From contig NC_009007.1 of NCBI RefSeq assembly GCF_000012905.2, forward strand, positions 1 to 32,000: a stretch of DNA of 32,000 nucleotides, in the 5' to 3' direction. Both the position numbers and the translations under genes were made by a program. Source of the stretch: Cereibacter sphaeroides 2.4.1 (GTDB taxonomy: Bacteria; Pseudomonadota; Alphaproteobacteria; Rhodobacterales; Rhodobacteraceae). This document shows, one piece after another, positions 4,145-28,822 of this stretch. Below the pieces are notes generated by a model that made no database searches, had not been told where the DNA came from, and was given only the letters and a program-made list of their open reading frames with translations. Positions within the stretch are counted from its first letter, which is position 1. Each line of letters starts with the position of its first letter.

Positions 4145-4180
4145 TTTGCCCCCGCCGTGCCGCCCTGCCGACCCCCCGAT

Positions 4181-4200: not shown

Positions 4201-4215
4201 CCGGGGCCCGGGCGC

Positions 4216-5874: not shown

Positions 5875-5936
5875 GGCTCCGGCGGATTCGGCCAAGTGCT
5901 TGAGGAGACGCGGGAAAGGGGAGGTTCCGGGAAGCC

Positions 5937-8312: not shown

Positions 8313-8375
8313 GGTGCGTGGACAACCTGCGGATGAGACCTTATTCCAGACAGCATAAAGACAGGGGAATTTCGG

Positions 8376-8939: not shown

Positions 8940-8942
8940 CCC

Positions 8943-12475: not shown

Positions 12476-12841
12476 GCGGCTGCTCCGATCCTGTGAGATC
12501 CGCATCCCGAGAAAGGCGCGCGCGACCGTGCGCGCAGAAGGCTCCGGACGCCGCGGGCAGGCCCCTTGGACCGGTTGAGCTTTCCCGCGGCGGCGCCCGG
12601 CAGGACCGGGGCCCGGCTGCGCCTTCCGTCTCTCGTTTCGATCCTTTGCAGAGGACAGGCCATGCTCTTCCCTCACCGGCGAGACCGCCGCGCCCGCCCC
12701 GACTGTCCCGAAATCTGCGAACGGAATCAACAGGCTCGATCTGCGAGCTTCCGGGCGCGCCGGAAAGCCCGGGCGCCGGGAGCCCCGGATCCGCGGGATG
12801 GGCCCGCCGCCCGGTCCTCGATGCGGCTCACCCCGGGGTCC

Positions 12842-13567
12842 TCAGTAGCCGAAGGCCTCCATCGCGGGGGCGGCGGCGGCCTCGACCGCCGCGCGGTCGG
12901 CGGCGGGCAGGGCGCGGTGCCGACCGACCCCGTCCGGCGGGCGCACCTCGATCCCGGTCCCGGCCGGCTCGAGCCGCAGCCCGAACTGCCGCCCGAGCCG
13001 GGCCATGCAGCCCTCGGGATCCCGGCAGAGATCCTCGAACCGCAGGATCGCATAGCGGTCGCCGAGCACCGCCTCGGCATGGCGCTTCACCCGGAGATTG
13101 CTCTCGGCCCAGAAGCGCGCCCGGTCGGCGGGCGTGCCCGGGCCCTCGGGCACATGGCGCTCATACTGCCGGCGGTTGCCCGAGAGCGCCATGTCGCGCC
13201 CGTCGCGCACCATATGGATGAAGCGCAGCCCGGGCACGAGCGCCACCGAGAAGGGCAGCAGGAACATGCTGCGGGGGTTCTTCCAGCCCCAGAAGGGCTC
13301 GCCCGCATGGAGGGCCAGATGCTCCGTCAACGCCGCGCGCCAGAGGGCCAGATCGGCCTCCTCGGGCCGGCCGCCCTCGAGAAGCCGCGCGCCGCGCGCC
13401 GCCAGCGCCTCGATCGCCGCGACCAGCGCGAGCGAATCCCCGGCCTCGTTCCGCGCGCCCCCGAGATAGCCGCCCGCCGCCCGCAGGAGCTGGCCCGCCA
13501 CCCGCGTGCCCGAGCCGCCGCTCGCGCCGAGAACGAGGGCCGGGGTCTCGGGAAGGTCCCTGTCCAT
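12842..13567 (-). CDS. Sulfotransferase family protein (second, divergent type)
   Basis: ATG at 13567 ([23 protein letters not shown]). It has a P-loop-like 5'-[24 protein letters not shown] and [14 protein letters not shown] (3'-PB-like) are typical of bacterial sulfotransferases. The rest of the 12842..14701 ORF is antisense to kdsA and is discarded. Confidence 0.7.
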
Positions 13568-13768
13568 CCGATCGTCCTTCTGCCGAAAGGCCGCAGCTTT
13601 CCCGCAGGCCCCGGGGAACTCAAGGCTCATTCGGGCCTTGCCGCCGCAGGCGACCCTCCGGCGCGCGCGCGGGGCCGGCGGGAGGCGGGACCGATGGCGG
13701 CCCCTCCGGCGGATTTGAACCCCGCGCGCGCTTGGCATAAGGGTGGGACAGAAGCGCGGGAGACGGCC

Positions 13769-14605
13769 ATGACAGAGACGCCCACCATCGTGACCATCGG
13801 CGACATCGCCATCGGGGGCGGCCATCCGATCGCGCTCATCACCGGGCCCTGCCAGCTCGAGAGCCTCGATCATGCCCGCATGATGGCCGAGCGCATCGCC
13901 GAGGCCTGCGCGCCCACCGGAACGAAGTTCATCTTCAAGGCGAGCTACGACAAGGCCAACCGCTCGTCGCTCTCGACGGCGCGGGGCCTCGGGATGGAGA
14001 AGGGGCTCGAGATCCTCGGCCGGATCCGCGAGGAGTTCGGCGTGCCGGTCCTGACCGACGTCCATGAGCCCGGCCATTGCGCGACGGCCGCCGAGGTCTG
14101 CGACGTGCTGCAGATCCCGGCCTTCCTCTGCCGGCAGACCGACCTTCTGCTCGCGGCGGGCGAGACCGGCCGCGCCGTCAACGTCAAGAAGGGCCAGTTC
14201 CTCGCGCCCTGGGACATGAAGAACGTGGCCGACAAGGTGGCCTCGACCGGCAACCGGCGGATCCTGCTCTGCGAGCGGGGCACCTCCTTCGGCTACAACA
14301 CCCTCGTGACCGATTTCCGCGGCCTGCCGACCATGGCCGCGACCGGCTGGCCCGTGGTGTTCGACGCCACCCATTCGGTGCAGCAGCCGGGGGGCCTCGG
14401 CGGCTCCTCGGGCGGGCAGCGCGAATTCGCCCCGGTGCTCGCGCGGGCGGCCTGCGCGGTGGGGGTCTCGGCGCTCTTCATCGAGACGCACGAGGATCCC
14501 GACCGCGCGCCCTCGGACGGGCCGAACATGATCCCGGTGGACCGGATGGGCCGGCTCATCGCCGATCTCTGCGCCTTCGACGCGCTGGCCAAGTCGCTCG
14601 CCTGA
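13769..14605 (+). CDS. kdsA: 3-deoxy-8-phosphooctulonate (KDO-8-P) synthase
   Basis: ATG at 13769. [51 protein letters not shown] and [11 protein letters not shown] are canonical KdsA motifs. Length is 278 aa. Confidence 0.93.
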
Positions 14606-14737: not shown

Positions 14738-15331
14738 TCAGGCCGGCCGCACGGCCCGCGCCCAGAGCGCGAAGCGTCCGTCGGTCTGCACCGTGATCTC
14801 GGCGAAACCCGCGGCGCCCAGATGGCGGGCGAGCGAGGCCGCGGTGAAGCCCGTGCGGTGGGCCATGAAATCGTTGCCTTCGGCAATGGCGGGGCGGAAG
14901 CCGTAGAGGATGTCGAGCGGCGCGATCGGTCCCAGCGCCGAGACATAGGCCGGCTCCTCGAGCAGGCCCTGCGCCACGAGGAGCGCCACCGCCTGCAGGT
15001 CGGGCAGGGTCGCGAGCAGGAAGCCGCCCGGGCGGAGCACGCGGTGGAATTCGGCCAGCGCCAGCGGCACCTCGTGCGGGCGCAGATGTTCGAGATTGTG
15101 CGAGGACCAGACCGCATCCACCGACCCGTCCGCGACCATGGGCATCCCGGTGATGCTGGCCAGGATGTCGGGCGCGACGCCCGGATCGATGTCGAGCCGG
15201 AGCTCGCGCCAGTCACCGGCGGGAAAGACATCGCCGGGCAGCTTGGCGGGATTGGCCGCGCCGCAGCCGACATGGAGGACGGTGCGCGTCTCGGCGCGGG
15301 CCTCCGGGGTCTCGAGGGTCAGGGTCTCCAT
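14738..15331 (-). CDS. Class I SAM-dependent methyltransferase
   Basis: ATG at 15331 with GGAG 8 nt upstream, 22 bp after the HlyD-family gene stop. Motif I is VLHVGCG, the post-I/II region is VDAVWSSHNLEHL, and RVLRPGGFL is a Methyltransf_11-like fold signature. Confidence 0.8.
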   Translation of the reverse strand: METLTLETPEARAETRTVLHVGCGAANPAKLPGDVFPAGDWRELRLDIDPGVAPDILASITGMPMVADGSVDAVWSSHNLEHLRPHEVPLALAEFHRVLRPGGFLLATLPDLQAVALLVAQGLLEEPAYVSALGPIAPLDILYGFRPAIAEGNDFMAHRTGFTAASLARHLGAAGFAEITVQTDGRFALWARAVRPA

Positions 15332-15353: not shown

Positions 15354-16652
15354 TCAGGGACGGGGCTCGCGCAGGCTTTCGCTCAGCCCCTCGAGCAGCG
15401 GGTCGAGGAAATAGGACAGGAGGGTGCGGCGGCCGGCAAGGATGTCGGCCGTGAGCGTCATGCCGGGCATCAGCCCCTCGGGCAGGGGGGGACCGGGCGG
15501 AAAGACCACCCGCGCCGCATGCTGGGCGGGGCCGCCGCCGGGCGGGACGGCCGAACTCGGCGCCACGTCGGCCAGCCGGCCCTCGACCATGCCGTGATGG
15601 CGCCAGGGGAAGGCATCGACCTTGACCCGCACCGGCGCCCCCGCCCGCACGAGGCCCGCATCGCGCGACAGAAGCCCCAGTTCGGCGTGAAGCCCGCCGC
15701 CTGTGGGCGCGATCACCGCCACCGGATCGGCGGGCGTCATCAGCGAGCCGGGCCCGCCCGCCGCCACCGACAGGACCACCCCGGCCCCGGGCGCCCGCAG
15801 CTCGTGCAGCCGCGCGAGATCGGCGGTCTCGGCGATCTGCTCGGCCAGAACCGCGCGCCGCGGCCGGAGGTCGGCCAGCTCCTCGAGCAGCTTCTGCCGC
15901 CGGTCGCTCTCGAAGGCGGCAAGCCGTGCCGCGGCGCCCGCGCGTTCCTGCAGGAGGCCGTCGAGCGTGGCCTCGTTCCGGCGCTGGCGGGCCTCGGCCT
16001 CGAGCCGCGCGAGCCGCGTCTCGACGAAGGCCGCCCGGGTGCCGTTCTGCCTTGTCATCAGCCGCTCGCGCATCGCCTCGAGCTCGCGCGCGGTGGCGAG
16101 CGTCTCGGCCAGTGCCGGCCGCTCGGCGCGCGCGGCCTCGATGCCGCGGTCGATCCGGGCGAGATCGGCCTCGAGCCCGCGGCGCAGCGCGGTCTCGGTC
16201 GCGGCGCGGCCGGACTGGATGCGGCCCTCGAGCGCGCGGTCGGGGCCCGTGCCCGCGAGCGGCCGACCCACCAGCTCGGCCTCGATCCGCGCGATCCGCG
16301 CCGAGAGGGCGGCGGCCTGCGCCTTCAGCTGCGCGGCATCGGCGTCGGAGGTCCGGCTGTCCAGCCGCGCGAGCAGCTGGCCCGGCGCCACCAGATCCCC
16401 CGGCCGCACAAGGAGGCTGCGCAGCACCGCGGCCGTCACCGGACGCAGGACCGCGGCCGGATCGTCGGCCGCGATCCGGCCCGCGGCGCTCACCACCACA
16501 TCGATGGGCAGGAGGGCCGCAAGCCCCACCAGCGCCGCCAGCAGCGCCCCCGCCCCGAAGGGCCAGAGCCGGAGCAGCCAGGGCAGCGGCTCGTGCCGGA
16601 TCCGTTCGAGCGGCGACTGATAGGCCAGGGCCTCGGGCGCGAGCCTCCTCAT
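15354..16652 (-). CDS. Type I secretion periplasmic adaptor (HlyD-family membrane fusion protein)
   Basis: The ATG at 16652 overlaps the ABC gene stop (ATGA). It has an N-terminal TM (LWPFGAGALLAALVGLAALLPI), a lipoyl-like segment (VLRSLLVRPGDLVAPGQLLARLD), a long coiled-coil, VRVKVDAFP and MPGMTLTADI, matching HlyD organisation. The upstream 929 codons of the 1,361-aa track ORF are an out-of-frame overlap and are discarded. Confidence 0.88.
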   Translation of the reverse strand: MRRLAPEALAYQSPLERIRHEPLPWLLRLWPFGAGALLAALVGLAALLPIDVVVSAAGRIAADDPAAVLRPVTAAVLRSLLVRPGDLVAPGQLLARLDSRTSDADAAQLKAQAAALSARIARIEAELVGRPLAGTGPDRALEGRIQSGRAATETALRRGLEADLARIDRGIEAARAERPALAETLATARELEAMRERLMTRQNGTRAAFVETRLARLEAEARQRRNEATLDGLLQERAGAAARLAAFESDRRQKLLEELADLRPRRAVLAEQIAETADLARLHELRAPGAGVVLSVAAGGPGSLMTPADPVAVIAPTGGGLHAELGLLSRDAGLVRAGAPVRVKVDAFPWRHHGMVEGRLADVAPSSAVPPGGGPAQHAARVVFPPGPPLPEGLMPGMTLTADILAGRRTLLSYFLDPLLEGLSESLREPRP

Positions 16653-18823
16653 GACAGATGCTCGGTCTGCTGGCGCCAGAGATGGGCATAGATCTCGCAG
16701 CCCGCGAGCAGCGCCTCGTGCGGGGCGAAGGCCACGAGCCGGCCCTGGTCGAGCACCGCGATCCGGTCGGCGCGCACGAGGGACGAGAGCCGGTGCGAGA
16801 CCACGATCATGGTCCGGCCGCGGGCGATGGCGGCGAGGTTGCGGTTGACCACCGCCTCGGACTCGGGGTCGAGCGCGCTCGTGGCCTCGTCGAGGATCAG
16901 GATGCGCGGATCGGTGAGCAGCGCGCGGGCGATCGCCACCCGCTGGCGCTGGCCGCCCGAGAGGTTCGCGCCCCCCTCCTCGACGGGCGTGTCGAAGCCC
17001 CGCGGCAGGCGGCGGATGAATTCGTCGGCCCCCGCAAGGGCGGCCGCGCGCACCACCGCCTCGAGCCCGGCCTCGGGGCGGGCGAGGGCGATATTCTCGC
17101 GCAGCGTGCCGCGGAAGAGCAGATTGTCCTGCAGCACGATCCCCACCTGCCGCCGCAGAGGGCCGAGCGCGATGCTGCGGATGTCGATCCCGTCGAACAG
17201 GATCAGCCCGGCCTGCGGGGTCTCGATGCCCTGGATGAGCCGGGTGAGCGTGGTCTTGCCCGAGCCCGAGCGCCCGACGATGCCGATCACCTGCCCGGGC
17301 TCGATGGCGAGGCTCACCTGATCGAGCGCGGGCGTGGCGGCGCCGGGATAGGCGAAGCTCACCCCCCGGATCTCGAGCGCGCCGGTGAGGGCGGGGCGGG
17401 CGAGGGCGGCGGTGTCGGGCCGTTCGGGCGGATGATCCATGATCCGGCGCAGCATCCCGATCGACAGGGCGGCCTCCTGCCATTCGTTGACGAGCCCCAC
17501 GATCTGGACGAGCGGCCCGCTGACCCGCCCGGCCAGCATCAGCACCGCCACGAGCGTGCCCACCGTGATCGCGCCCTCGAGCGCCAGCGCCACGCCGAAG
17601 GCCACCACGCTCACCTGCATCAGCCGCTCGAGCAGGCTGGTGAGCGTGCTCGTGACGGCCGAGACGCGGCCCAGATCCCACTGCCGGCGCACCGAGAGGG
17701 CGAGGCTCTCCTCCCAGAGCGCGCCGCGGGCGGGCTCGACCGCGAGCGATTTCACCGCGCGCATGTTGTGCAGCGTCTCGACCAGAAGCGCCTGCCGCTC
17801 GGCCTCGACCGCATAGACCGCGTTCAGCCGCCGCTGGAGGAGCGGCAGCATGAGGGCGATGCAGCCCGCGATGGCGATCCCGTAGGCCGCGATCACCAGC
17901 GCGAGCCGGCCCGACAGGAAGGCCAGCGTGGCGAAGAGCACGGGCAGGAGGGCCGCGTCGAGCAGGGTCTGCAGCAGCCGCCCGGTCAGGAACTGGCGGA
18001 TCCTGTCGGTCTGCTGGATGTTGCGCGCGAGCACGCCCGCGGGCGTGGTCTCGAACAGCGTCATGGGCAGCGAGAGCAGATGGGCCACGCTCTCGGCCCC
18101 CAGATGGGCGTCGATCCGGCCGCCCGCGATCTGGCTCAGCCGCTGGCGGACATAGCCGAAGCCCGCGTCGAACAGCGCCAGCAGCACGAAGACCGCGGCG
18201 ACCGCGGCGAGCGTGTTCCAGGCCCGGTAGGCGATCACCCGGTCGATCATCGCCTGCATGAGGAGGGGCAGCGCGTAGGAGATCAGGTTGCCGATCACCA
18301 CCGCCACCGCGACGCCGAGAAAGAGCCCCTTCTCGCGCGCGAGCGCGGGCAGGAACCAGCGCAGCCCGAAGGCGGTCTCGGCGGCCCTCGGCCGGTCGGG
18401 GCGCCCGATCAGGATCAGCCGGCCGGTCCAGTCCCGGGCGAAGTCCTCCCAGGGCAGGGGCTGCACCCCCTGGGCCTCGTTCCGCGGATCGAGGAGGGCC
18501 ACGGTCCGCGCGCCCTCGGCCCCGCCCGCATGGACCAGCACCGCCCAGTGCCCGCCCCGCAGCTCCGCCAGCGCGGGATAGGCCTGCCCGAGCCGCGAGG
18601 CGGTGCGCCAGCCCGCATCGGCCAGCAGCCGGCAGCGCAGCCCCTTGCCGCCCAGAAGCCGCAGCAGATCGGGCGCGAAATCGCCGGTCTCGAGCGGGGG
18701 CAGCTCGTCGGGGCCGAGCAGCACCCCGTGATGGGCCGCCACCAGAAACACCGCGCGCAGCGTCGACAGCACGGGCGTGTCGAGCGCGATGGACCCGGGA
18801 AGCTGGGAATCGAAGGCTGCCAT
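16649..18823 (-). CDS. Type I secretion ABC exporter (HlyB-type) with N-terminal C39-like domain
   Basis: 724 aa: a ~140-aa N-terminal peptidase-C39-like domain, a 6-TM exporter domain and an NBD. Walker A is [10 protein letters not shown], the signature is [15 protein letters not shown], Walker B is ILILDEATSALD, and the H-loop is VSHRL. At the position of the C39 catalytic Cys (D-C-G) this protein reads D-T-P. Confidence 0.92.
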   Translation of the reverse strand: MAAFDSQLPGSIALDTPVLSTLRAVFLVAAHHGVLLGPDELPPLETGDFAPDLLRLLGGKGLRCRLLADAGWRTASRLGQAYPALAELRGGHWAVLVHAGGAEGARTVALLDPRNEAQGVQPLPWEDFARDWTGRLILIGRPDRPRAAETAFGLRWFLPALAREKGLFLGVAVAVVIGNLISYALPLLMQAMIDRVIAYRAWNTLAAVAAVFVLLALFDAGFGYVRQRLSQIAGGRIDAHLGAESVAHLLSLPMTLFETTPAGVLARNIQQTDRIRQFLTGRLLQTLLDAALLPVLFATLAFLSGRLALVIAAYGIAIAGCIALMLPLLQRRLNAVYAVEAERQALLVETLHNMRAVKSLAVEPARGALWEESLALSVRRQWDLGRVSAVTSTLTSLLERLMQVSVVAFGVALALEGAITVGTLVAVLMLAGRVSGPLVQIVGLVNEWQEAALSIGMLRRIMDHPPERPDTAALARPALTGALEIRGVSFAYPGAATPALDQVSLAIEPGQVIGIVGRSGSGKTTLTRLIQGIETPQAGLILFDGIDIRSIALGPLRRQVGIVLQDNLLFRGTLRENIALARPEAGLEAVVRAAALAGADEFIRRLPRGFDTPVEEGGANLSGGQRQRVAIARALLTDPRILILDEATSALDPESEAVVNRNLAAIARGRTMIVVSHRLSSLVRADRIAVLDQGRLVAFAPHEALLAGCEIYAHLWRQQTEHLS

Positions 18824-18937: not shown

Positions 18938-20710
18938 TCAGGCGCGGCGGGCGACCGAGAGCAGGGCCGCCTCGAAACGGCGGGTGAAATCGCGGCAGTC
19001 GCCCAAGGTGAGGCTCCAGCGCTCGGCGAGGGCGGGCCCCGTCAGGGCGGGGGCCGCCGCCGGGTCGGTGGCGATCGCCACAGCGCGGGCGACATAGGCC
19101 TCGAGGTCGGGGGCGATGCAATCTTCCAGCCCCACCGCCGTGAGGAGGCTCGCCGCCATCCGGCCCGAGAAGGTCCGCCCCGCGAGCGTGAGCAGGGGCA
19201 GCCCCATCCGGAGCGCGTCCGAGGCGATGGTCCCGGCATTGTAGGGCATCGTGTCGAGAAAGAGGTCGGCCAGCGCCAGCCGCGCCCGGTAGCGGGCGGG
19301 ATCGACGCGGGGGGCAAAGATCAGCCGGTGGGGGTCTAGGCCCGCCGCCTGCCAGCGGCCGGCCAGCGCCGCCTGCCCCTCGGGCGTATCCGCGACGAGC
19401 CACAGGACCGACCCCGGCACGGCCGCGACGATCCGGCACCAGGCGGCGAAGAGGGGCTCGGTGATTTTGTAGAAATGCGAGGCGCAGGCGAAGACGAAGG
19501 CGGCCTCCGGCAGGCCCTCGCCCGGGCGGTCGACGGCGGGCAGCAGGGGCCGTTGCCCGTCGTTGGCCTGATAGCAGCCCTCGAGCCGGAGCGGGGCCGG
19601 GCGGTAATGGGCGGCCTCGGCCTCGGGCACGGTCACTCGGTCGCAGATCAGCCAGTCGAGCTCGGGCAGCGGGACCGGCCCGATATAGCCCAGATAGGTC
19701 GCCTGCACCGGGGCGGGCTTCCAGCGCAGGATGCCCGGCCGGGCGCCGCGGGTCAGCCCGTTGAGATCGATCAGCAGGTCGATCTCGTCGGCGCGGATGC
19801 GCCGGGCCGCGGCCTCGTCGGAGAGGGGGCCGATCGGCACATGCCGGTCGAGGGCGGCGAGCACCCGCGCGCGCTCGGGGCTGCCGTCCTCGGGCGAGGC
19901 GCAGTAGCCCACCACCTCGAACCGGCTGCGGTCGTGGCGCTCGAGCAGTTCGGCGATGAGGAAGCTCATGGCGTGGCGGCAGAAGTCCGACGAGAGATAG
20001 CCGAGCCGCAGCCGGTCGTGGCGGTAGCCCCCGGCCGGGGCGAGCCGAATGCCCGGATCGGGCACATGCCGGGCGATCCAGGCCGCGGCCACCTCGCCCT
20101 GCCGAAGGGGATCGTCATGCAGCGCGAGGGTGGCGAGCGGGCCGCACTGCAGCTCGGCCTCGGCCTCGGTCAGGCCGGGGACGGCGAGCCGGGCCGGGGG
20201 CCAGGCCGCCATCTTCTGGCGGGCATGGACGAGATGCTGCACCACCTCGGGCTGGCGGGGATCGAGGAGAAGCGAGGCCCGCAGCTCCTCGGCGGCCTCC
20301 GCGAGCCGGCCCTCGGCCTCGAGCATCCGGCCGAGCTGGCGGTGGAGCTGGCGCCGCCCCTCGGCCGGGGGCAGCACCTGGCGCAGGAAGGCCAGCGCCT
20401 GCGTCCGGTCGCCCTGCGCCTCGGCCGCCTGACCGGCCGCGAGGGCCGCCTGCCACAGATCCGGCTTCTGGCGGAGCGCGGTGGCGGCCGCGCCGAGCGC
20501 CCCCTGCGGCTCGCCCGCAGCCTCGAGCAGCACCGCGAGATTGAACCAGGCGATCCAGGCGTCGGGCCGCTCGGGATGGAGCGCGAGCCAGCGGCGGTAG
20601 ATCTCGATCGCCGCGGCGGGGGCGGCCTCGGCCAGACCCACCAGCTGCTCGGCCGTGAGCGGGGGAGAGACGGAGCCGATGGGCAGGATCGGGGCGGGCT
20701 GCACCGTCAT
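18938..20710 (-). CDS. TPR-containing GT41-family glycosyltransferase (O-GlcNAc transferase / SPINDLY-like)
   Basis: ATG at 20710 with GAGGAG ~7 nt upstream (the track ORF starts at GTG 20734). The N-terminal ~190 aa are TPR-like. The C-terminal catalytic region aligns by eye with eukaryotic OGT motifs as I recall them: LRLGYLSSDFCRHAMSFL vs VGYVSSDFGNHPTSHL (catalytic His), PVQATYLGYIGP vs PIQAMWLGYPGT, FYKITEP vs LYKIDP (UDP-binding Lys), and LFLDTMPYNAGTIASDALRMGLPLLTLAG vs [29 protein letters not shown]. Confidence 0.85.
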   Translation of the reverse strand: MTVQPAPILPIGSVSPPLTAEQLVGLAEAAPAAAIEIYRRWLALHPERPDAWIAWFNLAVLLEAAGEPQGALGAAATALRQKPDLWQAALAAGQAAEAQGDRTQALAFLRQVLPPAEGRRQLHRQLGRMLEAEGRLAEAAEELRASLLLDPRQPEVVQHLVHARQKMAAWPPARLAVPGLTEAEAELQCGPLATLALHDDPLRQGEVAAAWIARHVPDPGIRLAPAGGYRHDRLRLGYLSSDFCRHAMSFLIAELLERHDRSRFEVVGYCASPEDGSPERARVLAALDRHVPIGPLSDEAAARRIRADEIDLLIDLNGLTRGARPGILRWKPAPVQATYLGYIGPVPLPELDWLICDRVTVPEAEAAHYRPAPLRLEGCYQANDGQRPLLPAVDRPGEGLPEAAFVFACASHFYKITEPLFAAWCRIVAAVPGSVLWLVADTPEGQAALAGRWQAAGLDPHRLIFAPRVDPARYRARLALADLFLDTMPYNAGTIASDALRMGLPLLTLAGRTFSGRMAASLLTAVGLEDCIAPDLEAYVARAVAIATDPAAAPALTGPALAERWSLTLGDCRDFTRRFEAALLSVARRA

Positions 20711-20962
20711 GGGGATCTCCTCGGTTTGCGGCACCTTCGCCGCTTCCGGTTAAGGGAGTCCTCATGCCGGGCCTGACCTCTTCCGTGTGCGCCGCGAGCC
20801 CGCTTCAATTTTAGGAGGAAACGCGCGGTCGCGGCGGGCGGCGTTAGGACTTTCCTTACCGCCGCTCGGAAGAATGCCGGAAATCACGGAGGCCAGCATG
20901 GCTCCGCATGCTGGTGGATGCGCCCAGGAAATGCGTGCGCCCCGCCCCATAGGGTGAGTGTG

Positions 20963-23900
20963 ATGACCGACTTCAGCAGCAAGACCACAGCAGAGATCGC
21001 GGCCCTGACGAGCGCCGAGGTCGCCAGCATGTCGAGCCAGGATCTGGCCGCCCTCTCCACCGCCCAGATCGCGGCGCTCACCGCCCAGCAGATCGGCTGG
21101 GTCAAGGCGGCGTCGCTGAAGGGGTTGGGGGATGCGCAGGTGGTGGCGCTGACGACGGCGCAGGCGGCGGCGCTCGGCTCGGCGCAGCTGGCCGCGCTGA
21201 CGACGGCGCAGGTGGCGGCGATGGAGACGGCCGATCTCGCGGCGCTCTCGGCCACGGGGGTGGCGGGGCTGACTTCGGCGCAGCTCGGGGGGCTCTCGAC
21301 CGGTCAGGTGGCGGCCCTCACCACGGCGCAGGTCGCGGCCCTGTCCAGCGTGGCGGTCAAGGGTCTGGGCTCGGTCCAGGCCTCGGGTCTCACGACGGCC
21401 CAGGTGGCCGCCCTGTCGACCGCCCAGCTCAAAGCCTTCTCGACCGCGGGCATGACGGGGCTCGGCACGGCGCAGATCGTGGCGCTCTCGAGCGCGCAGG
21501 CGGCGGTGCTCGGCTCGGCACAGGTCGCGGCGCTCACGACGGCGCAGGCGGCGGCGATGGAGACGGCCGATCTCGCGGCCCTCACCAGCGTGGCGGTGAA
21601 GGGGCTGAGCTCGACCCAGGTGGGCGCGCTGACCACGGCGCAGGTGGCGGCGCTGACCACGGGACAGCTCGGCGCGCTCTCGACCGGGGCGCTGAAGGGC
21701 CTGACCACGGCGCAGGTGGTTGCCCTGACCACGGCGCAGGCGGCCGGGCTCGGCTCGGCGCAGGTGGCGGGCCTCTCGAGCACGCAGATCGCGGCGCTGG
21801 AGACGGCGGATCTGGCCGCCCTCTCCTCGGCGGGGCTGAAGGGGCTCGGATCGGCGCAGGCCGCGGGCTTGACGACGGCGCAGGTGGCGGCGCTCACGAC
21901 GGCTCAGGTGGGCCAGCTTTCGAGTGCCGCGCTGAAAGGGCTCGGCACGGCGCAGGTGGTGGCACTGACGACCGCGCAGGCGGCGGCGCTCGGCACGGCG
22001 CAGGTGGGCGCGCTCTCGACCGCACAGGTGGCGGCGCTCGAGACCGTCGATCTCGCGGCGCTCTCGACGGCGGCAGCGAATGCCCTGACCTCGGCTCAGG
22101 CCGCGAGCCTCACGACGGCGCAGGTGGCCGCGCTGACGACGGCGCAGGTTGCGGCGCTCTCGACGGGGGCGGTGAAGGGGCTGAGCTCGACCCAGGCGGG
22201 CGCGCTGACCACGGCACAGGTGGCGGCGCTGACCACAGGACAACTGGGCGCACTCACGACGGCGGCGCTGAAGGGCCTGACCACGGCGCAGGTGGTGGCA
22301 CTGACCACGGCGCAGGCGGCGGGGCTCGGCTCGGCGCAGGTGGCGGGGCTCTCGAGCACGCAGATCGCGGCGCTGGAGACGGCGGATCTGGCCGCGCTTT
22401 CCACGACGGGGCTGAAGGGTCTGGGCTCGGCGCAGGCCGCGGGCCTGACCACGGCGCAGGTGGCGGCGCTCACCACGGCTCAGGTGGGCCAGCTCTCGAG
22501 TGCCGCGCTGAAAGGGCTCGGGACGGCGCAGATCGTGGCGCTGACGACGGCGCAGGCGGCGGCGCTGGGGTCGACGCAGGTGGCCGGGCTCTCGACCGCG
22601 CAGGTGGCGGCGCTGGAGACGGCCGATCTCGCGATGCTCTCGACCGCGGGGGTGAAGGCGCTGAGCTCGACGCAGGTGGGCGCGCTGACGACGGGGCAGG
22701 TGGCGGCCCTGACCACGGCGCAGGCCGCCCAGCTCTCGACGGCGGCGCTGAAGGGCCTGAGTTCGACGCAGGTGGCGGCCCTGACGACGGGGCAGGTGGC
22801 GGCCCTGACCACGGCCCAGCTCGGCGCGCTGACGACGGCGGCGCTGAAGGGCGTGACCACGGCGCAGGTGGTGGCGCTGACCACGGCGCAGGCGGCGGGG
22901 CTCGGCTCGGCGCTGCTGGCGGGCCTGTCGAGCACGCAGATCGCAGCGATCGAGACGGCGGATCTGGCCGCGCTCTCCACCACCGGGCTGAAGGGTCTGG
23001 GCTCGGCGCAGGCGGCGGGCCTGACCACGGCGCAGGTGGCCGCCTTCACCACGGCGCAGGTGGGGCAGCTTTCGACGGCGGCGCTGAAGGGGCTCGGCAC
23101 GGCGCAGGTGGTGGCGCTGACCACGGGCCAGGCGGGGGCGCTCGGCTCGGCGCAGGTGGCGGGTCTCTCGACCGCGCAGGTGGCGGCGCTCGAGACGGCC
23201 GATGTCGCGGCGCTCTCGACGGCGGGGGTGAAGGGCGTGGGCTCGGCGCAGGCGGCGGCCCTCGGCTCGGCGCAGGTGGCAGCGCTGACGACGGCGCAGG
23301 TGGGCCAGCTTTCGACCACGGCCCTGAAGGGCTTCGGCTCGGTGCAGGCTTCGGGTCTCACCACGGCGCAGGTGGCGGCGCTGACCACGGCGCAGCTCTC
23401 GCAGCTCTCGACGGCGGCGGTGAAGGGGCTCGGCACCGCGCAGATCGTGGCGCTGACCACGGGCCAGACGGCAGCGCTCGGCTCGGCGCAACTGGGCGCC
23501 CTCTCGACGGCGCAGGTGGCGGCCTTCGAGACGGCGGATGCCGCGGCGCTGACCACGACGGCGCTGAAGGGGCTGACCACGGCGCAGGTGGTGGCGCTGA
23601 CGACGGGTCAGGCGGCGGCGCTCGGCTCGGCGCAGGTCGCGGGCCTGTCGAGCACGCAGATCGCGGCGCTCGAGACGGCGGATCTCGCGGCCCTGACCAC
23701 CACGGCGGTGAAGGGCCTGGGCTCGACGCAGGTTTCGAGCCTGACGACGGGGCAGGTGGCGGCGCTCACCACCGTGCAGGTGGCGGCGCTGAGCACGGCG
23801 GCCGTGAAGGGCGTGGGCTCGGTGCAGGCCTCGGGGCTGACGACGGCGCAGGTGGCGGCGCTGACCACGGCCCAGGTGGCCCAGCTCTCGACGGCGGCGC

Positions 23901-25648
23901 TGAAGGGGCTCGGCACGGCGCAGATCGTGGCGCTGACCACGGCCCAGGCGGCCAAGCTCGGCTCCGATCAGGTCGCCGCCCTCTCGACGGCGCAGGTGGC
24001 GGCGCTGGAGACGGCGGATCTGGCGACCCTCTCGGCCACGGGCGTGAAGGGCTTCGGATCGGCACAGGCGGCGGCCCTCGGCTCGGCACAGGTGGCGGCG
24101 TTCACCACGGCGCAGGTGGCGGCGCTGACCACGGCGGCGGTGAAGGGCTTCGGCTCGGTGCAGGCCTCGGGCCTCACCACCGCGCAGGTGGCCGCGCTGA
24201 CCACGGCGCAGCTCTCGCAGCTCTCGACGGCGGCGGTGAAGGGGCTCGGCACGGCGCAGATCGTGGCGCTGACCACGGGCCAGACGGCGGCGCTCGGCTC
24301 GGCGCAGCTGGGTGCCCTCTCGACGGCGCAGGTGGCGGCCTTCGAGACGGCGGATGCCGCGGCGCTGACCACGACGGCGCTGAAGGGGCTGACCACGGCG
24401 CAGGTCGTGGCGCTGACCACGGGTCAGGCGGCCGCCCTCGGCTCGGTGCAGGTGGCGGGTCTCACGACCGCGCAGATGGCGGCGCTCGAGACGGCGGATC
24501 TCGCGGCCCTCACCACCACGGCGGTGAAGGGGATCACCACCGCCCAGATGGGGGCGCTGACGACGGGACAGGTGGCAGCCCTCACCACGGCGCAGGTGGC
24601 CGCGCTTGCGGGCACGGCGGTGAAGGGACTGTCCTCGACCCAGGCGGGGGCGCTGACGACGGCACAGGTGGCGGCGCTGACCACGGCCCAGGTGCCCCAG
24701 CTCTCGACGGCGGCGCTGAAAGGGCTCGGCTCGGCCCAGATCGTGGCGCTGACCACGGCCCAGGCGGCCGTCCTCGGCTCGGCGCAGCTGGGCGCCCTCT
24801 CGACGGTGCAGGTGGCGGCGCTCGAGACGGTCGATCTCGCGGCCCTGACCACCGCGGCCGTGAAGGGCCTCGGCTCGGCCCAGGTCGCGGGCCTGACCAC
24901 GGGCCAGGTGGCGGCCCTCACCACGGCGCAGATGGCCCAGCTCTCGACGGCGGCGATCGCGGGTCTGGGATCGGTGCAGGCCTCCGGCCTGACCACGGGC
25001 CAGGTGGCGGCCCTCACCACCGATCAGCTCGCCCGGATCACCACCGCGGCGGTGAAGGGGCTCGGCACGGCGCAGATCGTGGCTCTGACCACGGCGCAGG
25101 CGGCGACGCTCGGCTCGGCGCAACTGGCCGCGCTTTCGACGGCGCAGGTGGCGGCCTTCGAGACGGCGGATGTGGCGGCGCTGACCACCGCAGCGGTGAA
25201 GGGCTTCGGGACAGCGCAGGTGGCGGCGCTGACCACCGGGCAGGCGGCCGCCCTTGGCTCGCGTCAGGTGGGCGCGCTTTCCACGGCGCAGGTGGCGGCG
25301 CTCGAGACGGCGGATCTCGCAGCCCTCACCACCGCGGCCGTGAAGGGTCTGGGATCGGCGCAGGCGAAAGTCCTGACGGCGGCGCAGATGGCCGCGCTCA
25401 CCTCGGCTCAGGTGGCGGCCCTCACCACGACCGCCGTGGCAGGCTTCGGCTCGGTGCAGGCGGCGGCGCTCACCACGGCGCAGATGACGGCGCTCACCAC
25501 CGCGCAGATCCCCACCCTGACCACGGCCGCCATCAAGGGTCTCGAAACCGCCGATATCGCGGCGCTCACCACGACGCAGGCGTCGGCCTTCACGGCCACG
25601 CAACTGGGGGCCATGTCGAGCGCCCAGATCGCGGCTCTCTTCCTCTGA
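20963..25648 (+). CDS. Giant octapeptide-repeat protein (194 x L-T-T-A-Q-V-A-A-type repeats); function unknown, candidate T1SS cargo or O-glycosylation substrate
   Basis: ATG at 20963 (MTDFSSK) is in an ORF open from 20918 to the TGA at 25646-25648. Third codon positions are almost uniformly G/C in this frame. The in-register antisense ORF has its third positions on this frame's first positions (many A of Thr codons), so the + strand is the coding one. A strong hairpin plus T-rich tract lies just downstream. There is no Sec/Tat-like N-terminus and no recognised domain. Confidence 0.8.
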   Translation: MTDFSSKTTAEIAALTSAEVASMSSQDLAALSTAQIAALTAQQIGWVKAASLKGLGDAQVVALTTAQAAALGSAQLAALTTAQVAAMETADLAALSATGVAGLTSAQLGGLSTGQVAALTTAQVAALSSVAVKGLGSVQASGLTTAQVAALSTAQLKAFSTAGMTGLGTAQIVALSSAQAAVLGSAQVAALTTAQAAAMETADLAALTSVAVKGLSSTQVGALTTAQVAALTTGQLGALSTGALKGLTTAQVVALTTAQAAGLGSAQVAGLSSTQIAALETADLAALSSAGLKGLGSAQAAGLTTAQVAALTTAQVGQLSSAALKGLGTAQVVALTTAQAAALGTAQVGALSTAQVAALETVDLAALSTAAANALTSAQAASLTTAQVAALTTAQVAALSTGAVKGLSSTQAGALTTAQVAALTTGQLGALTTAALKGLTTAQVVALTTAQAAGLGSAQVAGLSSTQIAALETADLAALSTTGLKGLGSAQAAGLTTAQVAALTTAQVGQLSSAALKGLGTAQIVALTTAQAAALGSTQVAGLSTAQVAALETADLAMLSTAGVKALSSTQVGALTTGQVAALTTAQAAQLSTAALKGLSSTQVAALTTGQVAALTTAQLGALTTAALKGVTTAQVVALTTAQAAGLGSALLAGLSSTQIAAIETADLAALSTTGLKGLGSAQAAGLTTAQVAAFTTAQVGQLSTAALKGLGTAQVVALTTGQAGALGSAQVAGLSTAQVAALETADVAALSTAGVKGVGSAQAAALGSAQVAALTTAQVGQLSTTALKGFGSVQASGLTTAQVAALTTAQLSQLSTAAVKGLGTAQIVALTTGQTAALGSAQLGALSTAQVAAFETADAAALTTTALKGLTTAQVVALTTGQAAALGSAQVAGLSSTQIAALETADLAALTTTAVKGLGSTQVSSLTTGQVAALTTVQVAALSTAAVKGVGSVQASGLTTAQVAALTTAQVAQLSTAALKGLGTAQIVALTTAQAAKLGSDQVAALSTAQVAALETADLATLSATGVKGFGSAQAAALGSAQVAAFTTAQVAALTTAAVKGFGSVQASGLTTAQVAALTTAQLSQLSTAAVKGLGTAQIVALTTGQTAALGSAQLGALSTAQVAAFETADAAALTTTALKGLTTAQVVALTTGQAAALGSVQVAGLTTAQMAALETADLAALTTTAVKGITTAQMGALTTGQVAALTTAQVAALAGTAVKGLSSTQAGALTTAQVAALTTAQVPQLSTAALKGLGSAQIVALTTAQAAVLGSAQLGALSTVQVAALETVDLAALTTAAVKGLGSAQVAGLTTGQVAALTTAQMAQLSTAAIAGLGSVQASGLTTGQVAALTTDQLARITTAAVKGLGTAQIVALTTAQAATLGSAQLAALSTAQVAAFETADVAALTTAAVKGFGTAQVAALTTGQAAALGSRQVGALSTAQVAALETADLAALTTAAVKGLGSAQAKVLTAAQMAALTSAQVAALTTTAVAGFGSVQAAALTTAQMTALTTAQIPTLTTAAIKGLETADIAALTTTQASAFTATQLGAMSSAQIAALFL
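20981..25636 (+). repeat. 24-bp periodic coding tandem array (194 units, 4,656 bp) with 120/240-bp super-repeats
   Basis: The unit is approximately GCG CTG ACC ACG GCG CAG GTG GCG. 6 codons + 194x8 codons + 3 codons equals the ORF length exactly, consistent with no net register shift. The register was checked by eye at both ends and through several internal stretches. Confidence 0.85.
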
Positions 25649-25661
25649 CATAGAGGGAGCA

Positions 25662-25696
25662 CCTCCGGCCCTTCGGGGCCGGAGGATCTTCTTTCC
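25662..25696 (+). terminator. Rho-independent terminator candidate
   Basis: CCTCCGGCCC-TTCG-GGGCCGGAGG (10-bp perfect GC-rich stem, tetraloop) at 25662-25685, followed by ATCTTCTTTCC. It lies 14 nt after the giant gene stop, between convergent genes. Confidence 0.65.
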
Positions 25697-25732: not shown

Positions 25733-28700
25733 TCAGATCACGAAGAAATCCGCGGCCGTCAGGCCGAGCCCCGCCGAGAGGGTCGCGATCTGCACCCGCG
25801 CGCCCCCTCCGGTGCCGTCGGCATCGAACCAGAGCGCCCCGGTGTCGCGCTCATAGAGGATCCGGTCGGCCGCATCGGTGGCCTGTCCCGAGAGGTTGGA
25901 GGCAAAGGCCGCCCCGCGCAGCGCCCCCGCCGGAAGGCCGCGGAACACCGCATTTTCCAGATGGATCACGTCGTCGGCCACGTTGAAATCCGCGATCCGG
26001 TCGATCGCGCCGGGCCCGGGGCGGGTGTTGAAGACAAAGCTGTCGCGCCCGGCGCCGCCGATCAGCAGATCCGCCCCGCCGCCGCCGCTCAGCGTGTCGT
26101 TGCCGGCGCCGCCGCTCAGCCGGTTCGCGCCGCCATTGCCGATCAGCAGGTTCGAAAGCCCGTTGCCGGTCCCCGAAAGGTTCGCCGTGCCCGTCAGCAC
26201 CAGCGTCTCGAGCTGGGCGCCCAGCGTGTAGCTGACCGAGGCGCGCACCACATCCACCCCCTGGCCCGCGCGCTCCACGATCGTGTCGCCGCCATCGGTG
26301 ATGTAGGTGTCGTTGCCCGTCCCGCCGATCATGACGTCGCGCCCGCCGCCGCCGTTCAGCGTGTCGTTGCCGGCAAGCCCCTGCAGCCGGTTCGCCCCGC
26401 CATTGCCGGTGAGCAGGTTCGCAAGCCCGTTGCCGGTGCCCGACAGGGCAGCCCCGCCGGTCAGCACCAGCCGCTCGACATTGGCGGCCAGGGTCCAGGA
26501 GAGGCTGCTCTGCACCGTGTCGATACCGCCCCCGGCCAGCTCGATCGTGCTGTCCCCGGCATGGTTGACGATATAGCGGTCGTTGCCCGTGCCCCCCACC
26601 ATCCGGTCGCGTCCGCCGCCGCCGTCGAGCAGGTCGTTGCCCGCGCCGCCCGACAGAAGGTCATTGCCGCCCCGGCCCTCGATCCGGTCGTTGCCGCCGA
26701 ACCCCTCGATCCGCTCGGCATTGGCCGTGCCGATCAGCCGGTCGTTGCCGCCCGAGCCGCGGAGCGTGCCGTCGAGGAGGGTGGCCACCCCCACCGGCAC
26801 CGGCGTGGCCGAGGAGATGGCGCTGGGGAAGGGCGGCACGAGGCGTAGGCTGAAGCTCTCGGTATTCTCGAGCACGAGATCGTCGAGGATGGGGATGAGA
26901 ATTTCGGCCCGGGTCTGGCCGGGCAGGAAGACCACCTCGCCCGACCGGGCGGCGAAGTCGCTGCCCGGGCGGGCCGTCCCGGCGAGGGTCTGGAAGCCGA
27001 TGGCGATCCGCTCGGCCGAGGCGGCCGAAAGCTCGACCACGAAGACCGCGACCCGGCCGCCGGGCCCTTCCTGCAGCGTGGCATGGCCGACCGAGACCGA
27101 GCGGTTCAGCCCCACCCCGTCATTGTCGAGCACCCAGCCGCCGGTGGACAGGGCGCGGTTGCCGCCGCCGAACTGCGCGCCGCGGGGATCGCTCAGATCG
27201 AGAAAGAAGCTCTCGTCGATCTCGTCGAGACTGTCGTTGTAGGAACGGATGCGGAGGGTCTGCACCGTCTCGCCGGGGGCGAAGGTGAGGGTGCCCGAGG
27301 GGGCCGTGGAATAGAAATCCTCGTCGAGCAGCGCGGTGCCGGAGCGGAACTGGTAATCCACGCTCACCGCGTCGGTCGCGGGCTCGGAGAGCCGGATCGT
27401 ATAGGTGAGGTAGCTGCCCTCGACCACCCGGTCGCCTTCGACCGAGATCACTGGCACCGGCCCGTCGTCGTTCAGGATCTCGGCCGTGCCGGTGGCGGCG
27501 GGCACGCCATGGGCGCCGGTGACGGCCAGACCGAAGGTCTCGCCCGCCTCGACCGCGCCATCGTTGATCAGATTGACCGCGACCGTGGCCTCGGTCTGGC
27601 CGGCGAGGAAGGTGACGGTGCCGGTGCGGGCAACATAATCCGCGCCTGCCCGGGCCGAGCCGTCATGGGTCGTGTAGGTGAAGCTGCGGTCGGTGGTGAA
27701 GGCCTCCGACAGCGTGAGGGTGAAGAGCGCCTGCCCGCCTGCGGCCTCGGTCACCACCGGGTTCGAGACGGCCAGTGCCCGGTTCACCCCCACGCCGTCA
27801 TTGTCGATCACCCAGCCCGTCGTGACGAGGGTCGAGATGTTGGCGCCGAACCGCGCGCCCTGCGGTTCGCTCAGCTCGAGAAAGAAGCTCTCGTCGATTT
27901 CGTCGAGACTGTCGTTGTAGGAGCGGATGCGGAGGGTCTGCACCGTCTCGCCCGGGGCGAAGGTGAGCGTGCCCGAGGGGGCGGTGGAATAGAAATCCTC
28001 GTCGAGCAGCGCGGTGCCCGAGCGGAACAGGTAATCCACGCTCACCGCGTCGGTCGCGGGCTCGGAGAGCCGGATCGTATAGGTGAGGTAGCTGCCCTCG
28101 ACCACCCGGTCGCCCTCGACCGAGATCACCGGCACCGGCCCGTCGTCGTTCAGGATCTCGGCCGTGCCGGTCGCGGCGGGCACGCCATGGGCGCCGGTGA
28201 CCGCGAGGCCGAAGGTCTCGCCCGCCTCGACGGCGCCATCGTTGATCAGATTGACCGCGACCGTGGCCTCGGTCTGGCCGGCGAGGAAGGTGACTGTGCC
28301 GGTGCGGGCCACGTAATCCGCGCCCGCCCGGGCCGACCCATCGTAGGTCGTGTAGGTGAAGCTGCGGTCGGTGGTGAAGGCCTCCGACAGCGTGAGGGTG
28401 AAGAGCGCCTGCCCGCCCGCGGCCTCGGTCACCACGGGGTTCGAGACGGCCAGCGCCCGGTTCACCCCCACGCCATCGTCGTCGATCACCCAGCCCGCGG
28501 TGACGAGGGTCGAGATGTTGGCGCCGAACTGCGCGCCCTGCGGATCGCTCAGTTCGAGAAAGAAGCTCTCGTCGATCTCGTCGAGCCTGTCGTTGTAGGA
28601 CCGGATCTGGAGGGTCAGCACCGTCTCGCCGGGGGCGAAGACGAGCGTGCCCGAGGGGGCGGTGGAATAGAAATCCTCGTCGAGCAGCGCGGTGCCGGAG

Positions 28701-28822
28701 CGGAACAGGTAATCCACGCTCACCGCATCGGGGGCGGGCTCGGAGAGCCGGATGGTGTAGGTGAGGTAATTGCCCTCGACGACGGGGGTGCTGGTGACGC
28801 TGAAGGTCGGAAGAATGGCCAT
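25733..28822 (-). CDS. Calx-beta repeat / RTX (hemolysin-type calcium-binding) secreted protein, T1SS substrate
   Basis: ATG at 28822 (MAILPTFSV); the track ORF begins at an upstream TTG. It has six Calx-beta-like modules (VVEGxYLTYTIRLSEP..VSVDY..SGTA..DEDF, DESFFLELS). The C-terminal ~330 aa carry many GGxGxD nonapeptides (GGNDRIEGRGGNDLLSGGAGNDLLDGGGGRD). The protein ends in ...LTAADFFVI, typical of alphaproteobacterial T1SS C-terminal signals. Confidence 0.88.
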   Translation of the reverse strand: MAILPTFSVTSTPVVEGNYLTYTIRLSEPAPDAVSVDYLFRSGTALLDEDFYSTAPSGTLVFAPGETVLTLQIRSYNDRLDEIDESFFLELSDPQGAQFGANISTLVTAGWVIDDDGVGVNRALAVSNPVVTEAAGGQALFTLTLSEAFTTDRSFTYTTYDGSARAGADYVARTGTVTFLAGQTEATVAVNLINDGAVEAGETFGLAVTGAHGVPAATGTAEILNDDGPVPVISVEGDRVVEGSYLTYTIRLSEPATDAVSVDYLFRSGTALLDEDFYSTAPSGTLTFAPGETVQTLRIRSYNDSLDEIDESFFLELSEPQGARFGANISTLVTTGWVIDNDGVGVNRALAVSNPVVTEAAGGQALFTLTLSEAFTTDRSFTYTTHDGSARAGADYVARTGTVTFLAGQTEATVAVNLINDGAVEAGETFGLAVTGAHGVPAATGTAEILNDDGPVPVISVEGDRVVEGSYLTYTIRLSEPATDAVSVDYQFRSGTALLDEDFYSTAPSGTLTFAPGETVQTLRIRSYNDSLDEIDESFFLDLSDPRGAQFGGGNRALSTGGWVLDNDGVGLNRSVSVGHATLQEGPGGRVAVFVVELSAASAERIAIGFQTLAGTARPGSDFAARSGEVVFLPGQTRAEILIPILDDLVLENTESFSLRLVPPFPSAISSATPVPVGVATLLDGTLRGSGGNDRLIGTANAERIEGFGGNDRIEGRGGNDLLSGGAGNDLLDGGGGRDRMVGGTGNDRYIVNHAGDSTIELAGGGIDTVQSSLSWTLAANVERLVLTGGAALSGTGNGLANLLTGNGGANRLQGLAGNDTLNGGGGRDVMIGGTGNDTYITDGGDTIVERAGQGVDVVRASVSYTLGAQLETLVLTGTANLSGTGNGLSNLLIGNGGANRLSGGAGNDTLSGGGGADLLIGGAGRDSFVFNTRPGPGAIDRIADFNVADDVIHLENAVFRGLPAGALRGAAFASNLSGQATDAADRILYERDTGALWFDADGTGGGARVQIATLSAGLGLTAADFFVI
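27200..28822 (-). repeat. 678-bp (226-aa, two Calx-beta modules) tandem repeat, ~2.4 copies, near-identical
   Basis: The antisense track ORFs 27678..27920 and 28356..28598 encode nearly identical peptides at an offset of exactly 678 bp. The protein repeats PVPVISVEGDRVVEGSYLTYTIRLSEPATDAVSVDY... almost verbatim. The lower boundary is approximate. Confidence 0.8.

Follow-up and report, generated by a model that had tools for sequence, protein, structure and literature searches.

Results

An uninterrupted octad array in a plasmid-borne gene

The stretch of DNA studied here, which we refer to as the window, comprises the 32,000 nucleotides from position 1 to 32,000 of contig NC_009007.1 of Cereibacter sphaeroides 2.4.1. 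At its centre of interest, on the forward strand, lies the gene for a giant protein (WP_011836189.1) that consists almost wholly of eight-residue repeats and that we call the ALTTAQ protein, after the Pfam family of that name. A glycosyltransferase gene of family GT41 stands divergently beside it, with the genes of a type I secretion system (T1SS) beyond. The replicon is plasmid b, record NZ_CP015290.1 (window coordinate = record coordinate + 298). The features of the repeat gene and its immediate borders are these:

20711..20962, no strand assigned: spacer between the divergent GT41 and ALTTAQ genes, presumably holding the promoter; GGGTGAG stands 5-11 nt 5' of the ATG
20963..25648, + strand: ALTTAQ-repeat protein gene; 1,561 residues, 146.6 kDa, pI 6.5
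20981..25636, + strand: array of 194 in-phase octads (residues 7-1558), L-[TSG]-[TS]-A-Q-[VLI]-[AK]-[AG], in 4- and 6-octad units
25421..25645, + strand: last nine octads plus LFL, a tail kept position for position in alphaproteobacterial orthologs and the candidate for an uncleaved T1SS signal at the C-terminus
25662..25685, + strand: intrinsic-terminator-like hairpin, 10-bp stem with 9 G-C pairs and a T-rich tail, 14 nt past the stop codon

A scripted check resolved the protein into MTDFSS, 194 octads and LFL (6 + 194 x 8 + 3 = 1,561 residues) with no indel, just as an earlier note on this DNA, made from the letters alone, had counted. The composition given there was also correct in every particular: Cys, His and Tyr are absent, Trp and Asn occur once each, and Pro and Arg twice each. 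Seven residue types make up 91% of the chain (Ala 429, Thr 250, Leu 217, Gly 147, Gln 146, Val 123 and Ser 115), followed by Lys (39), Asp (22), Ile (22), Glu (19), Phe (14) and Met (12). Ser and Thr together number 365, and the grand average of hydropathy (GRAVY) is +0.72. Column by column, the octad reads L (170 of 194), T/S/G/E, T/S (186 of 194), A, Q (134), V/L/A/I, A/K/G and A/G, and the self-identity of the protein is 0.44 at a lag of 8 residues, while lags other than multiples of 8 give 0.05-0.15.

The longer periods turned out differently from those first described. The earlier note had proposed 5-octad super-repeats and an ETAD octad recurring mostly every 80 residues, whereas self-identity at a lag of five octads is at baseline (0.436) and the ETAD octads are spaced by 14 octads (eight times), 10 (five times) or 6 (three times). 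The true super-units are of 4 octads (GttK or tttK) and 6 octads (GtGtEK or ttGtEK), each closed by a '..KG' octad, and their combinations give peaks at lags of 10, 14, 20, 24, 34 and 48 octads, the highest being that at 34 (0.71). Octads 98-110 (23333-23644) and 132-144 (24149-24460) encode the same 104 residues with 95% DNA identity (15 of 312 nt differ), and this pair, at a lag of 34 octads or 816 nt, is the most recent internal duplication.

We place the start of the gene at the ATG at 20963, and not at the ATG at 20918, because the N-terminus that recurs across the family, M-[ST]-x-[IF]-x-x-[LK]-T-T-A-[QE]-I-A-A-L, fits the former. No sigma-70-like consensus promoter was found in the divergent intergenic region.

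Evidence for a constrained coding sequence

Repetitive DNA of 73-76% GC yields long open reading frames (ORFs) in several frames, and here an antisense ORF of 1,629 residues (20762-25651, - strand) covers the entire repeat gene, so the array might be suspected of being a non-functional ORF or an assembly artefact. The earlier note had named a lack of expression and an assembly artefact as outcomes that could undo its reading. GC contents at codon positions 1, 2 and 3 of 20963-25648 are 0.71, 0.61 and 0.93, like those of neighbouring real genes, and the third-position value drops to 0.70 in the antisense frame, which this codon signature shows to be no gene but a shadow ORF arising from periodic, GC-rich DNA. 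Seven assemblies of the 2.4.1 lineage carry the identical gene sequence, and a coding sequence (CDS) of exactly 4,686 nt is also present in strains KD131, HJ and ATCC 17029, which with 2.4.1 makes four C. sphaeroides strains. Pairwise, these strains differ by 72-255 substitutions and no indel, with dS of at most 0.14 and dN/dS of 0.14-0.18; amino-acid changes are least frequent at octad positions 5, 3 and 2. No exact DNA repeat of at least 100 nt was found inside the gene, and its tandem copies are 59-82% identical at the DNA level. The lack of such repeats, the identical assemblies and the constant length in strains show that the array is not an assembly artefact. As judged from these comparisons, the array is under purifying selection, its length included. 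Homologs, moreover, number in the hundreds, and we consider a spurious array to be already refuted by the comparative data, with a negligible residual chance.

Two further relatives of the gene are incomplete in their records. The 96% identity match in C. johrii JA192 is broken over contigs of 2.3 and 5.6 kb of a short-read assembly, and in C. sphaeroides strain IL106 the CDS annotation covers the 3' part alone and the T1SS genes are unannotated; these breaks could be frameshifts, pseudogenes or sequencing errors. Positions 2976-7323 of the window hold plasmid maintenance genes, namely a ParB-like gene, an AAA ATPase (ParA-like) and replication initiator protein A, which places the entire locus on a plasmid. 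This replicon, plasmid b of 2.4.1, is assigned to rep_cluster_252, and the locus is kept on homologous plasmids of other C. sphaeroides strains.

A widespread family with unreliable names

The earlier note had not recognised the protein as part of a described family, and in this it was mistaken: Pfam PF20080, 'ALTTAQ repeat', matches with E = 0 and 1,192.4 bits over 57 stretches (gathering threshold 26.4 bits), and RefSeq carries the protein as WP_011836189.1. No NCBIfam model matches it. Weak Pfam matches to LRR_EndoS, Phage_TAC_7, HTH_25, Poly_export and Sigma70_r4_2 were dismissed as repeat or composition noise, no stretch passing alone. What does hold is that nothing on the function or structure of the family was found in the literature searched, where ALTTAQ goes unmentioned and PF20080 undiscussed, and where work on GT41 with type I secretion, or on an ice nucleation protein of sphaeroides, yielded nothing on the family either.

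The names in the databases are of little help. The RefSeq product name of WP_011836189.1 is 'ICE nucleation protein', and other records use 'heme utilization protein', 'large exoprotein involved in heme utilization or adhesion' or 'hypothetical protein'. Because the same gene is labelled differently across records, we do not treat these names as evidence; no profile match supports any of the three functional names, all look like legacy transfers on low-complexity similarity, and 'ICE nucleation protein' is a misnomer.

When 1.84 billion cluster representatives were searched exhaustively with a profile, 2,551 matched at E <= 1e-3, 1,099 at 1e-10 and 289 at 1e-30. A word-indexed search gave 219 relatives, the best of them sharing 36-54% identity. 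Scanning a single genome for each species located 75 ALTTAQ loci in Alpha-, Beta- and Gammaproteobacteria and in a few metagenome-assembled genomes (MAGs) of Verrucomicrobiota and Acidobacteriota. Many relatives have 2,000-6,400 residues, the largest 6,425, and a single octad phase is held over as many as 4,816 residues. In some, the repeat is fused to RTX repeats, two-partner secretion (TPS) domains, calpain-type proteases or immunoglobulin (Ig)-like domains; among them the window protein, of medium size and made of repeats only, is no extreme. It shares with its PF20080 relatives the octad motif, the absence of a signal peptide and the N-terminus, which in the form M-S-x-I-x-x-L-T-T-A-Q-I-A-A-L-S-T... 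is common to several classes and leads straight into the repeats. PF26745 is also listed among the domains of relatives, and the contig of the closest metagenomic homolog stops just past the gene.

Among alphaproteobacterial orthologs the C-terminus is conserved as well. An alignment of the window protein with those of nine other loci gives the tail pattern ...LETxDIxA LxxxQxxA FTxxQxxA MxxxQxxA LF[LMIA], orthologs ending in LF[LMIA] or LS[ML]. Seven beta- and gammaproteobacterial giants share a non-repeat module in their C-terminal ~300 residues, PLVLDLNGDGV...DxNGDGxIxDGxELFG...GNxIGLxSSYxTxDG, followed by class-specific tails (..YNVYNDGDIQLLVA.. or ..DDExxxNxxPLI). By its DxNGDG motifs this module looks Ca-binding-like; it had no match in the Pfam and NCBIfam copies scanned.

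A predicted eight-residue helical screw

Single-sequence AlphaFold2 prediction of residues 1-406 gave a strictly periodic HHHHH--- pattern at a predicted local distance difference test score (pLDDT) of 58.7. When octads 30-69 were modelled with an alignment built from the protein itself, as 29 segments of 40 octads shifted against one another, pLDDT rose to 94.0 and the predicted TM score (pTM) was 0.85, the five models spanning pLDDT 88.7-94.0, values that may be inflated by an alignment made solely from the protein's own repeats. In this model positions 1-2 of the octad are coil and 3-7 helix in 40 of 40 octads, with position 8 helical in 19 of 40, which makes one helix of 5-6 residues per octad; DSSP assigns helices only, and no strands, in both models. 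The earlier note had found the 8-residue period at odds with coiled-coil heptads and hendecads, and the protein is indeed not a coiled coil. The octad can be read in terms of helix capping: L1 is N', T/S/G2 the N-cap, T/S3 is N1 and Q5 is N3 (capping box), V/L6 is N4 and forms a hydrophobic staple with L1, and A7/A8 are small core residues.

The single significant sequence match in the Protein Data Bank (PDB) is to 9ZEM, HeliScrew4 (E = 5.5e-14 with the single sequence, 9.3e-19 with the profile). The likeness is register-specific, with a mean BLOSUM62 score of +1.18 and 33% identity in phase; the seven remaining cyclic shifts score between -0.22 and -0.94. HeliScrew4 is a design with LTPEQIAA-type octads whose 2.2 Å crystal structure is an '8-mer alpha-helical screw', in which short helices wind tightly round a central axis with an apolar core, S/T/D/N N-caps and, in helical screws generally, 2.5-4 units per superhelical turn (bioRxiv 10.64898/2025.12.04.691947). 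The description of the fold dates from 2025 and drew on predictions for random repeats and on a single crystal structure of a design; the HeliScrew authors count the fold as 'dark matter' of protein structure space, 7QLR being the sole natural example that they cite from the PDB (bioRxiv 10.64898/2025.12.04.691947). We found no sequence match between 7QLR and the ALTTAQ protein.

Between LTPEQIAA and LTTAQVAA, the 8-residue period is the same and the residue or its class is alike at positions 1, 2, 5, 6, 7 and 8, and the two proteins have in common the S/T N-cap, the apolar core and one short helix per repeat. HeliScrew4, however, is a designed protein of 120 residues with Pro at N1 and charged surface residues, whereas in the ALTTAQ protein N1 is Thr/Ser, the surface is rich in Ala and weakly charged, and the 194 repeats form 4- and 6-octad super-units that end in KG-LG junctions. 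From the models, the natural protein is probably a rod of the 8-mer alpha-helical screw fold. Taking 2.5-4 octads per turn and a pitch of ~1 nm, we put its length at some tens of nanometres, a rough estimate and not a computed value. A Foldseek comparison of the model with the PDB returned only mesothelin and importin-alpha (TM <= 0.30), loose alpha-solenoid matches that we do not take as relatives.

A conserved GT41 neighbour

The divergent neighbour and a methyltransferase gene further along the same strand are the candidate modifying enzymes of the locus:

18938..20710, - strand: OGT-type GT41 glycosyltransferase with N-terminal tetratricopeptide repeats (TPRs); PF13844, E = 2e-59; proposed modifying enzyme
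14738..15331, - strand: class I S-adenosylmethionine (SAM)-dependent methyltransferase, 197 residues; Methyltransf_11, E = 3e-11; in 13 of the 75 loci at 40-73% identity

Neighbours were surveyed by tblastn of the window's genes against the 75 loci, at >= 60% coverage and within the flanks present. The earlier note had suspected a link of the family with T1SS and GT41 genes, and the survey bears this out, with GT41 found in 37 of 75 loci, HlyB in 19 and HlyD in 12. The GT41 gene is mostly within 700 bp of the ALTTAQ gene, and it is present in 17 of the 21 loci with at least 6 kb of flank on either side. In Pseudomonas-type loci it lies 3' of the giant gene on the same strand, with the methyltransferase gene preceding the giant gene.

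The window's GT41 resembles the Xanthomonas campestris enzyme XcOGT (XCC0866, 2JLB) over its full length, TPRs and GT-B catalytic domain aligning end to end (residues 54-597 against 17-562, E = 6e-63), and also matches human OGT (8e-66); no HMW1C/NGT structure was among its structure matches. The equivalents of His218 and Lys388 of XcOGT are retained (positions counted in the alignment). The equivalent of a third residue, His466, is Gly, with YNAGTI in place of YNAHTT. In XcOGT, His466 contacts the UDP phosphates (PMC2556091). Most ALTTAQ-linked GT41s likewise have Gly for His466 (YNAGT or NGGT), together with an SSDFC.HA[VM]S motif, and a minority (~34% identity) keep His. This pattern suggests that the Gly-for-His466 enzymes are a distinct subfamily, possibly with another donor sugar.

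The ALTTAQ protein has a single Asn and no N-X-S/T sequon, and any modification by this GT41 must for that reason be O-linked. We infer from the gene pairing that the GT41 probably O-glycosylates the ALTTAQ protein, and position 3 (N1), the most conserved hydroxyl position of the octad, is the likelier target. Upstream, positions 7374-14605 hold a cell-surface glycan block (a glycosyltransferase, rfbC-rfbB-rfbD-rfbA for dTDP-rhamnose synthesis, two sulfotransferases and kdsA), which could supply sugars or a rod-related surface polysaccharide.

Type I secretion genes and a second candidate substrate

The remaining genes that bear on export are the following:

16649..18823, - strand: HlyB-type T1SS ATP-binding cassette (ABC) transporter, 724 residues; TIGR01846, E = 3e-172; ABC_membrane and ABC_tran
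15354..16652, - strand: HlyD-family membrane-fusion protein of a T1SS, 432 residues; HlyD_3, E = 2.6e-13
25733..28822, - strand, convergent with the ALTTAQ gene: Calx-beta/RTX protein, 1,029 residues (RefSeq start), with six Calx-beta domains, RTX nonapeptides and a serralysin-type C-terminal region

RefSeq names the product at 16649-18823 a 'peptidase domain-containing ABC transporter'. Over its N-terminal ~150 residues Pfam Peptidase_C39 has no match at E <= 0.01; by eye, the usual position of the catalytic Cys is not Cys and the 'GHWAVLV' His motif is kept, so that the extension looks like an inactive C39-like domain as found in HlyB. HlyB orthologs of 55-61% identity stand beside ALTTAQ genes in other alphaproteobacterial genera, and the divergent GT41-ALTTAQ pair together with a T1SS is kept in Amaricoccus, Rhodobacter sp. 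Har01, Rhodovulum, Neoroseomonas and a Rhodospirillales MAG. The Calx-beta/RTX gene, by comparison, appears among the 75 loci in C. johrii only.

The ALTTAQ protein itself enters the repeats directly from its N-terminus, and its most hydrophobic 19-residue Kyte-Doolittle window scores 1.45, in keeping with the lack of a signal peptide or transmembrane segment that the earlier note had read from the letters. The same note had seen no RTX motif, and indeed there is no GGxGxD and no PF00353 match. A TPS domain (PF05860) with signal peptide is likewise absent from the window protein; PF05860 is present in some relatives. Type I secretion signals are not open to a reliable sequence test. On the strength of gene context and the conserved tail, we infer that HlyB/HlyD probably export the ALTTAQ protein.

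Discussion

Taken together, these data lead us to propose that the ALTTAQ protein, a minimal, repeat-only member of PF20080, is a T1SS-exported, O-glycosylated rod of the helical-screw type that serves as a surface or matrix fibre; we give this reading a probability of roughly 55%. Of its elements, the anatomy of the repeat, the purifying selection, the constant length, the place in the family and the gene linkage are shown, and the fold is predicted. Each octad would form one very short alpha-helix, and the 194 helices would wind round a common axis into a stiff rod, long and thin, whose core is Leu/Val/Ala and whose outside displays several hundred Thr/Ser hydroxyls and Gln amides in a helical array. 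The protein would be made in the cytoplasm with no Sec signal, where the divergently encoded GT41 would most likely O-glycosylate its Thr/Ser residues, with another modification perhaps contributed by the co-clustered SAM methyltransferase. HlyB/HlyD would then export it by way of its conserved C-terminal tail, and the rod, once outside, would act as a fibre of the cell surface or of a matrix. The repeat may also be the stalk that bears RTX, TPS, calpain-protease or Ig-like domains in larger relatives.

Several observations weigh against this proposal. On the side of the fold, the high AlphaFold2 confidence comes from an alignment of the protein with itself, a Foldseek search of the model against the PDB gave mesothelin as its best match (TM 0.24-0.30) with 9ZEM absent from the matches, and since HeliScrew4 is designed, its likeness to the ALTTAQ protein reflects shared folding rules or convergence and not homology. 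On the side of glycosylation, the replacement of His466 by Gly leaves the activity and donor sugar of the GT41 uncertain, and if the N-cap Thr is needed for folding, its glycosylation would conflict with the fold, so that position 3 would have to be the target. As for secretion, an HlyB-type gene is within the flanks at hand in only 19 of 75 loci, most T1SS substrates are acidic and the ALTTAQ protein is near-neutral (pI 6.5), and the T1SS could instead serve the neighbouring Calx-beta/RTX protein, a second candidate substrate.

The alternatives can be weighed against the same evidence. The extreme composition, with seven residue types at 91%, the conserved glycosyltransferase next door and a single-sequence pLDDT of just 58.7 would all suit a mucin-like or disordered spacer, in which octads with no fixed fold make up an extended, low-complexity tether or coat, heavily O-glycosylated. 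Against this, there are zero single-codon indels over 1,552 residues in spite of octads ~60% identical in DNA, and relatives keep one phase for thousands of residues, which together argue for a structural register. Apolar residues are fixed at positions 1 and 6, a GRAVY of +0.72 is atypical of disordered proteins, AlphaFold2 with an alignment reaches pLDDT 94, and the crystallised HeliScrew4 design, alike at 6 of 8 consensus positions, folds as predicted. We therefore think a disordered coat unlikely. An ice-nucleation or ice-binding protein, whose periodic hydroxyl array would order water, is suggested by the RefSeq product name and by the resemblance that the earlier note had drawn: like InaZ-family proteins, the ALTTAQ protein has a nested hierarchy of periods built on 8 residues and several hundred Thr/Ser. 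The ice-nucleation repeat has a conserved Tyr, folds as a beta-solenoid of 16-residue coils and is flanked by distinct N- and C-terminal domains. The ALTTAQ protein has no Tyr and no His, no Pfam ice-nucleation match at E <= 0.01 and no NCBIfam match, no N-terminal membrane-anchor domain, and in the AlphaFold2 models short helices instead of a beta-solenoid; its hydroxyls at positions 2 and 3 probably serve as N-caps or glycosylation sites. The analogy fails in every test made, and we rate an ice-related function as very improbable.

Just as unlikely as a disordered coat, in our estimate, is that the adjacent T1SS leaves the ALTTAQ protein alone and serves the Calx-beta/RTX protein, the ALTTAQ protein then being an intracellular GT41 substrate or scaffold or leaving the cell by another route. 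The Calx-beta protein does have the canonical RTX repeats and serralysin-type C-terminal region that the ALTTAQ protein lacks, OGT-type enzymes act in the cytoplasm, and HlyB is within reach in the minority of loci given above. The cluster of T1SS, GT41 and ALTTAQ genes nevertheless persists in other genera with no Calx-beta/RTX gene, relatives carry exoprotein modules (RTX, TPS, Ig-like), the beta- and gammaproteobacterial relatives end in the Ca-binding-like DxNGDG module and a conserved tail, and a cytoplasmic role does not explain why the extreme C-terminus is conserved.

Precedents exist for parts of the proposed exported, glycosylated rod. BapA of the related alphaproteobacterium Paracoccus denitrificans is, like the ALTTAQ protein, a giant low-complexity repeat protein encoded beside T1SS genes; it has 891 Asp-Ala repeats, is a T1SS substrate and is needed for biofilm formation (PMC5588039). 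The ALTTAQ protein differs from BapA and the LapA-type RTX adhesins in lacking Asp-Ala and RTX repeats, an acidic, Ca-binding character (its pI is 6.5) and an N-terminal retention module, and a glycosyltransferase partner is undescribed for those proteins. For glycosylation the closest parallel is HMW1/HMW1C of Haemophilus influenzae, where a cytoplasmic GT41 encoded beside a large secreted repeat protein modifies it before export. HMW1C-type systems use N-glycosylation at N-X-S/T and two-partner secretion (PMC3012730, PMC10507012), whereas here, as distinct from these and from NGT systems, the enzyme is OGT-type, there is no sequon and the neighbouring exporter is a T1SS.

The family as such is already catalogued in Pfam and annotated in RefSeq, and the system itself is uncharacterised. 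In the literature searched we did not find stated the link of the ALTTAQ family to the helical screw, its conserved pairing with an OGT-type GT41 (Gly for His466) or its T1SS context. The name 'ICE nucleation protein' misleads and should not be carried over into further records. With ~1,100 clusters matching, a large-scale natural use of the 8-mer helical screw becomes testable in the tractable C. sphaeroides 2.4.1, and the locus raises the question of how a non-RTX, near-neutral and strongly folding-prone repeat protein passes through a T1SS. To our knowledge, the substrates of bacterial OGT-like GT41s have remained mostly undefined since the XcOGT structures of 2008, and the conserved gene pair nominates one. 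More tentatively, and with less confidence than we have in the proposal for the window protein, we suggest that ALTTAQ proteins are a widespread natural class of giant helical-screw nanorods made of hundreds to thousands of octads in one phase, the dedicated substrates of a Gly-for-His466 GT41 subfamily that decorates their helical array of Thr/Ser before type I secretion. If this is true, the pair would be the first defined enzyme and substrate for this class of bacterial OGT homologs, and the rods a new type of extracellular glyco-fibre.

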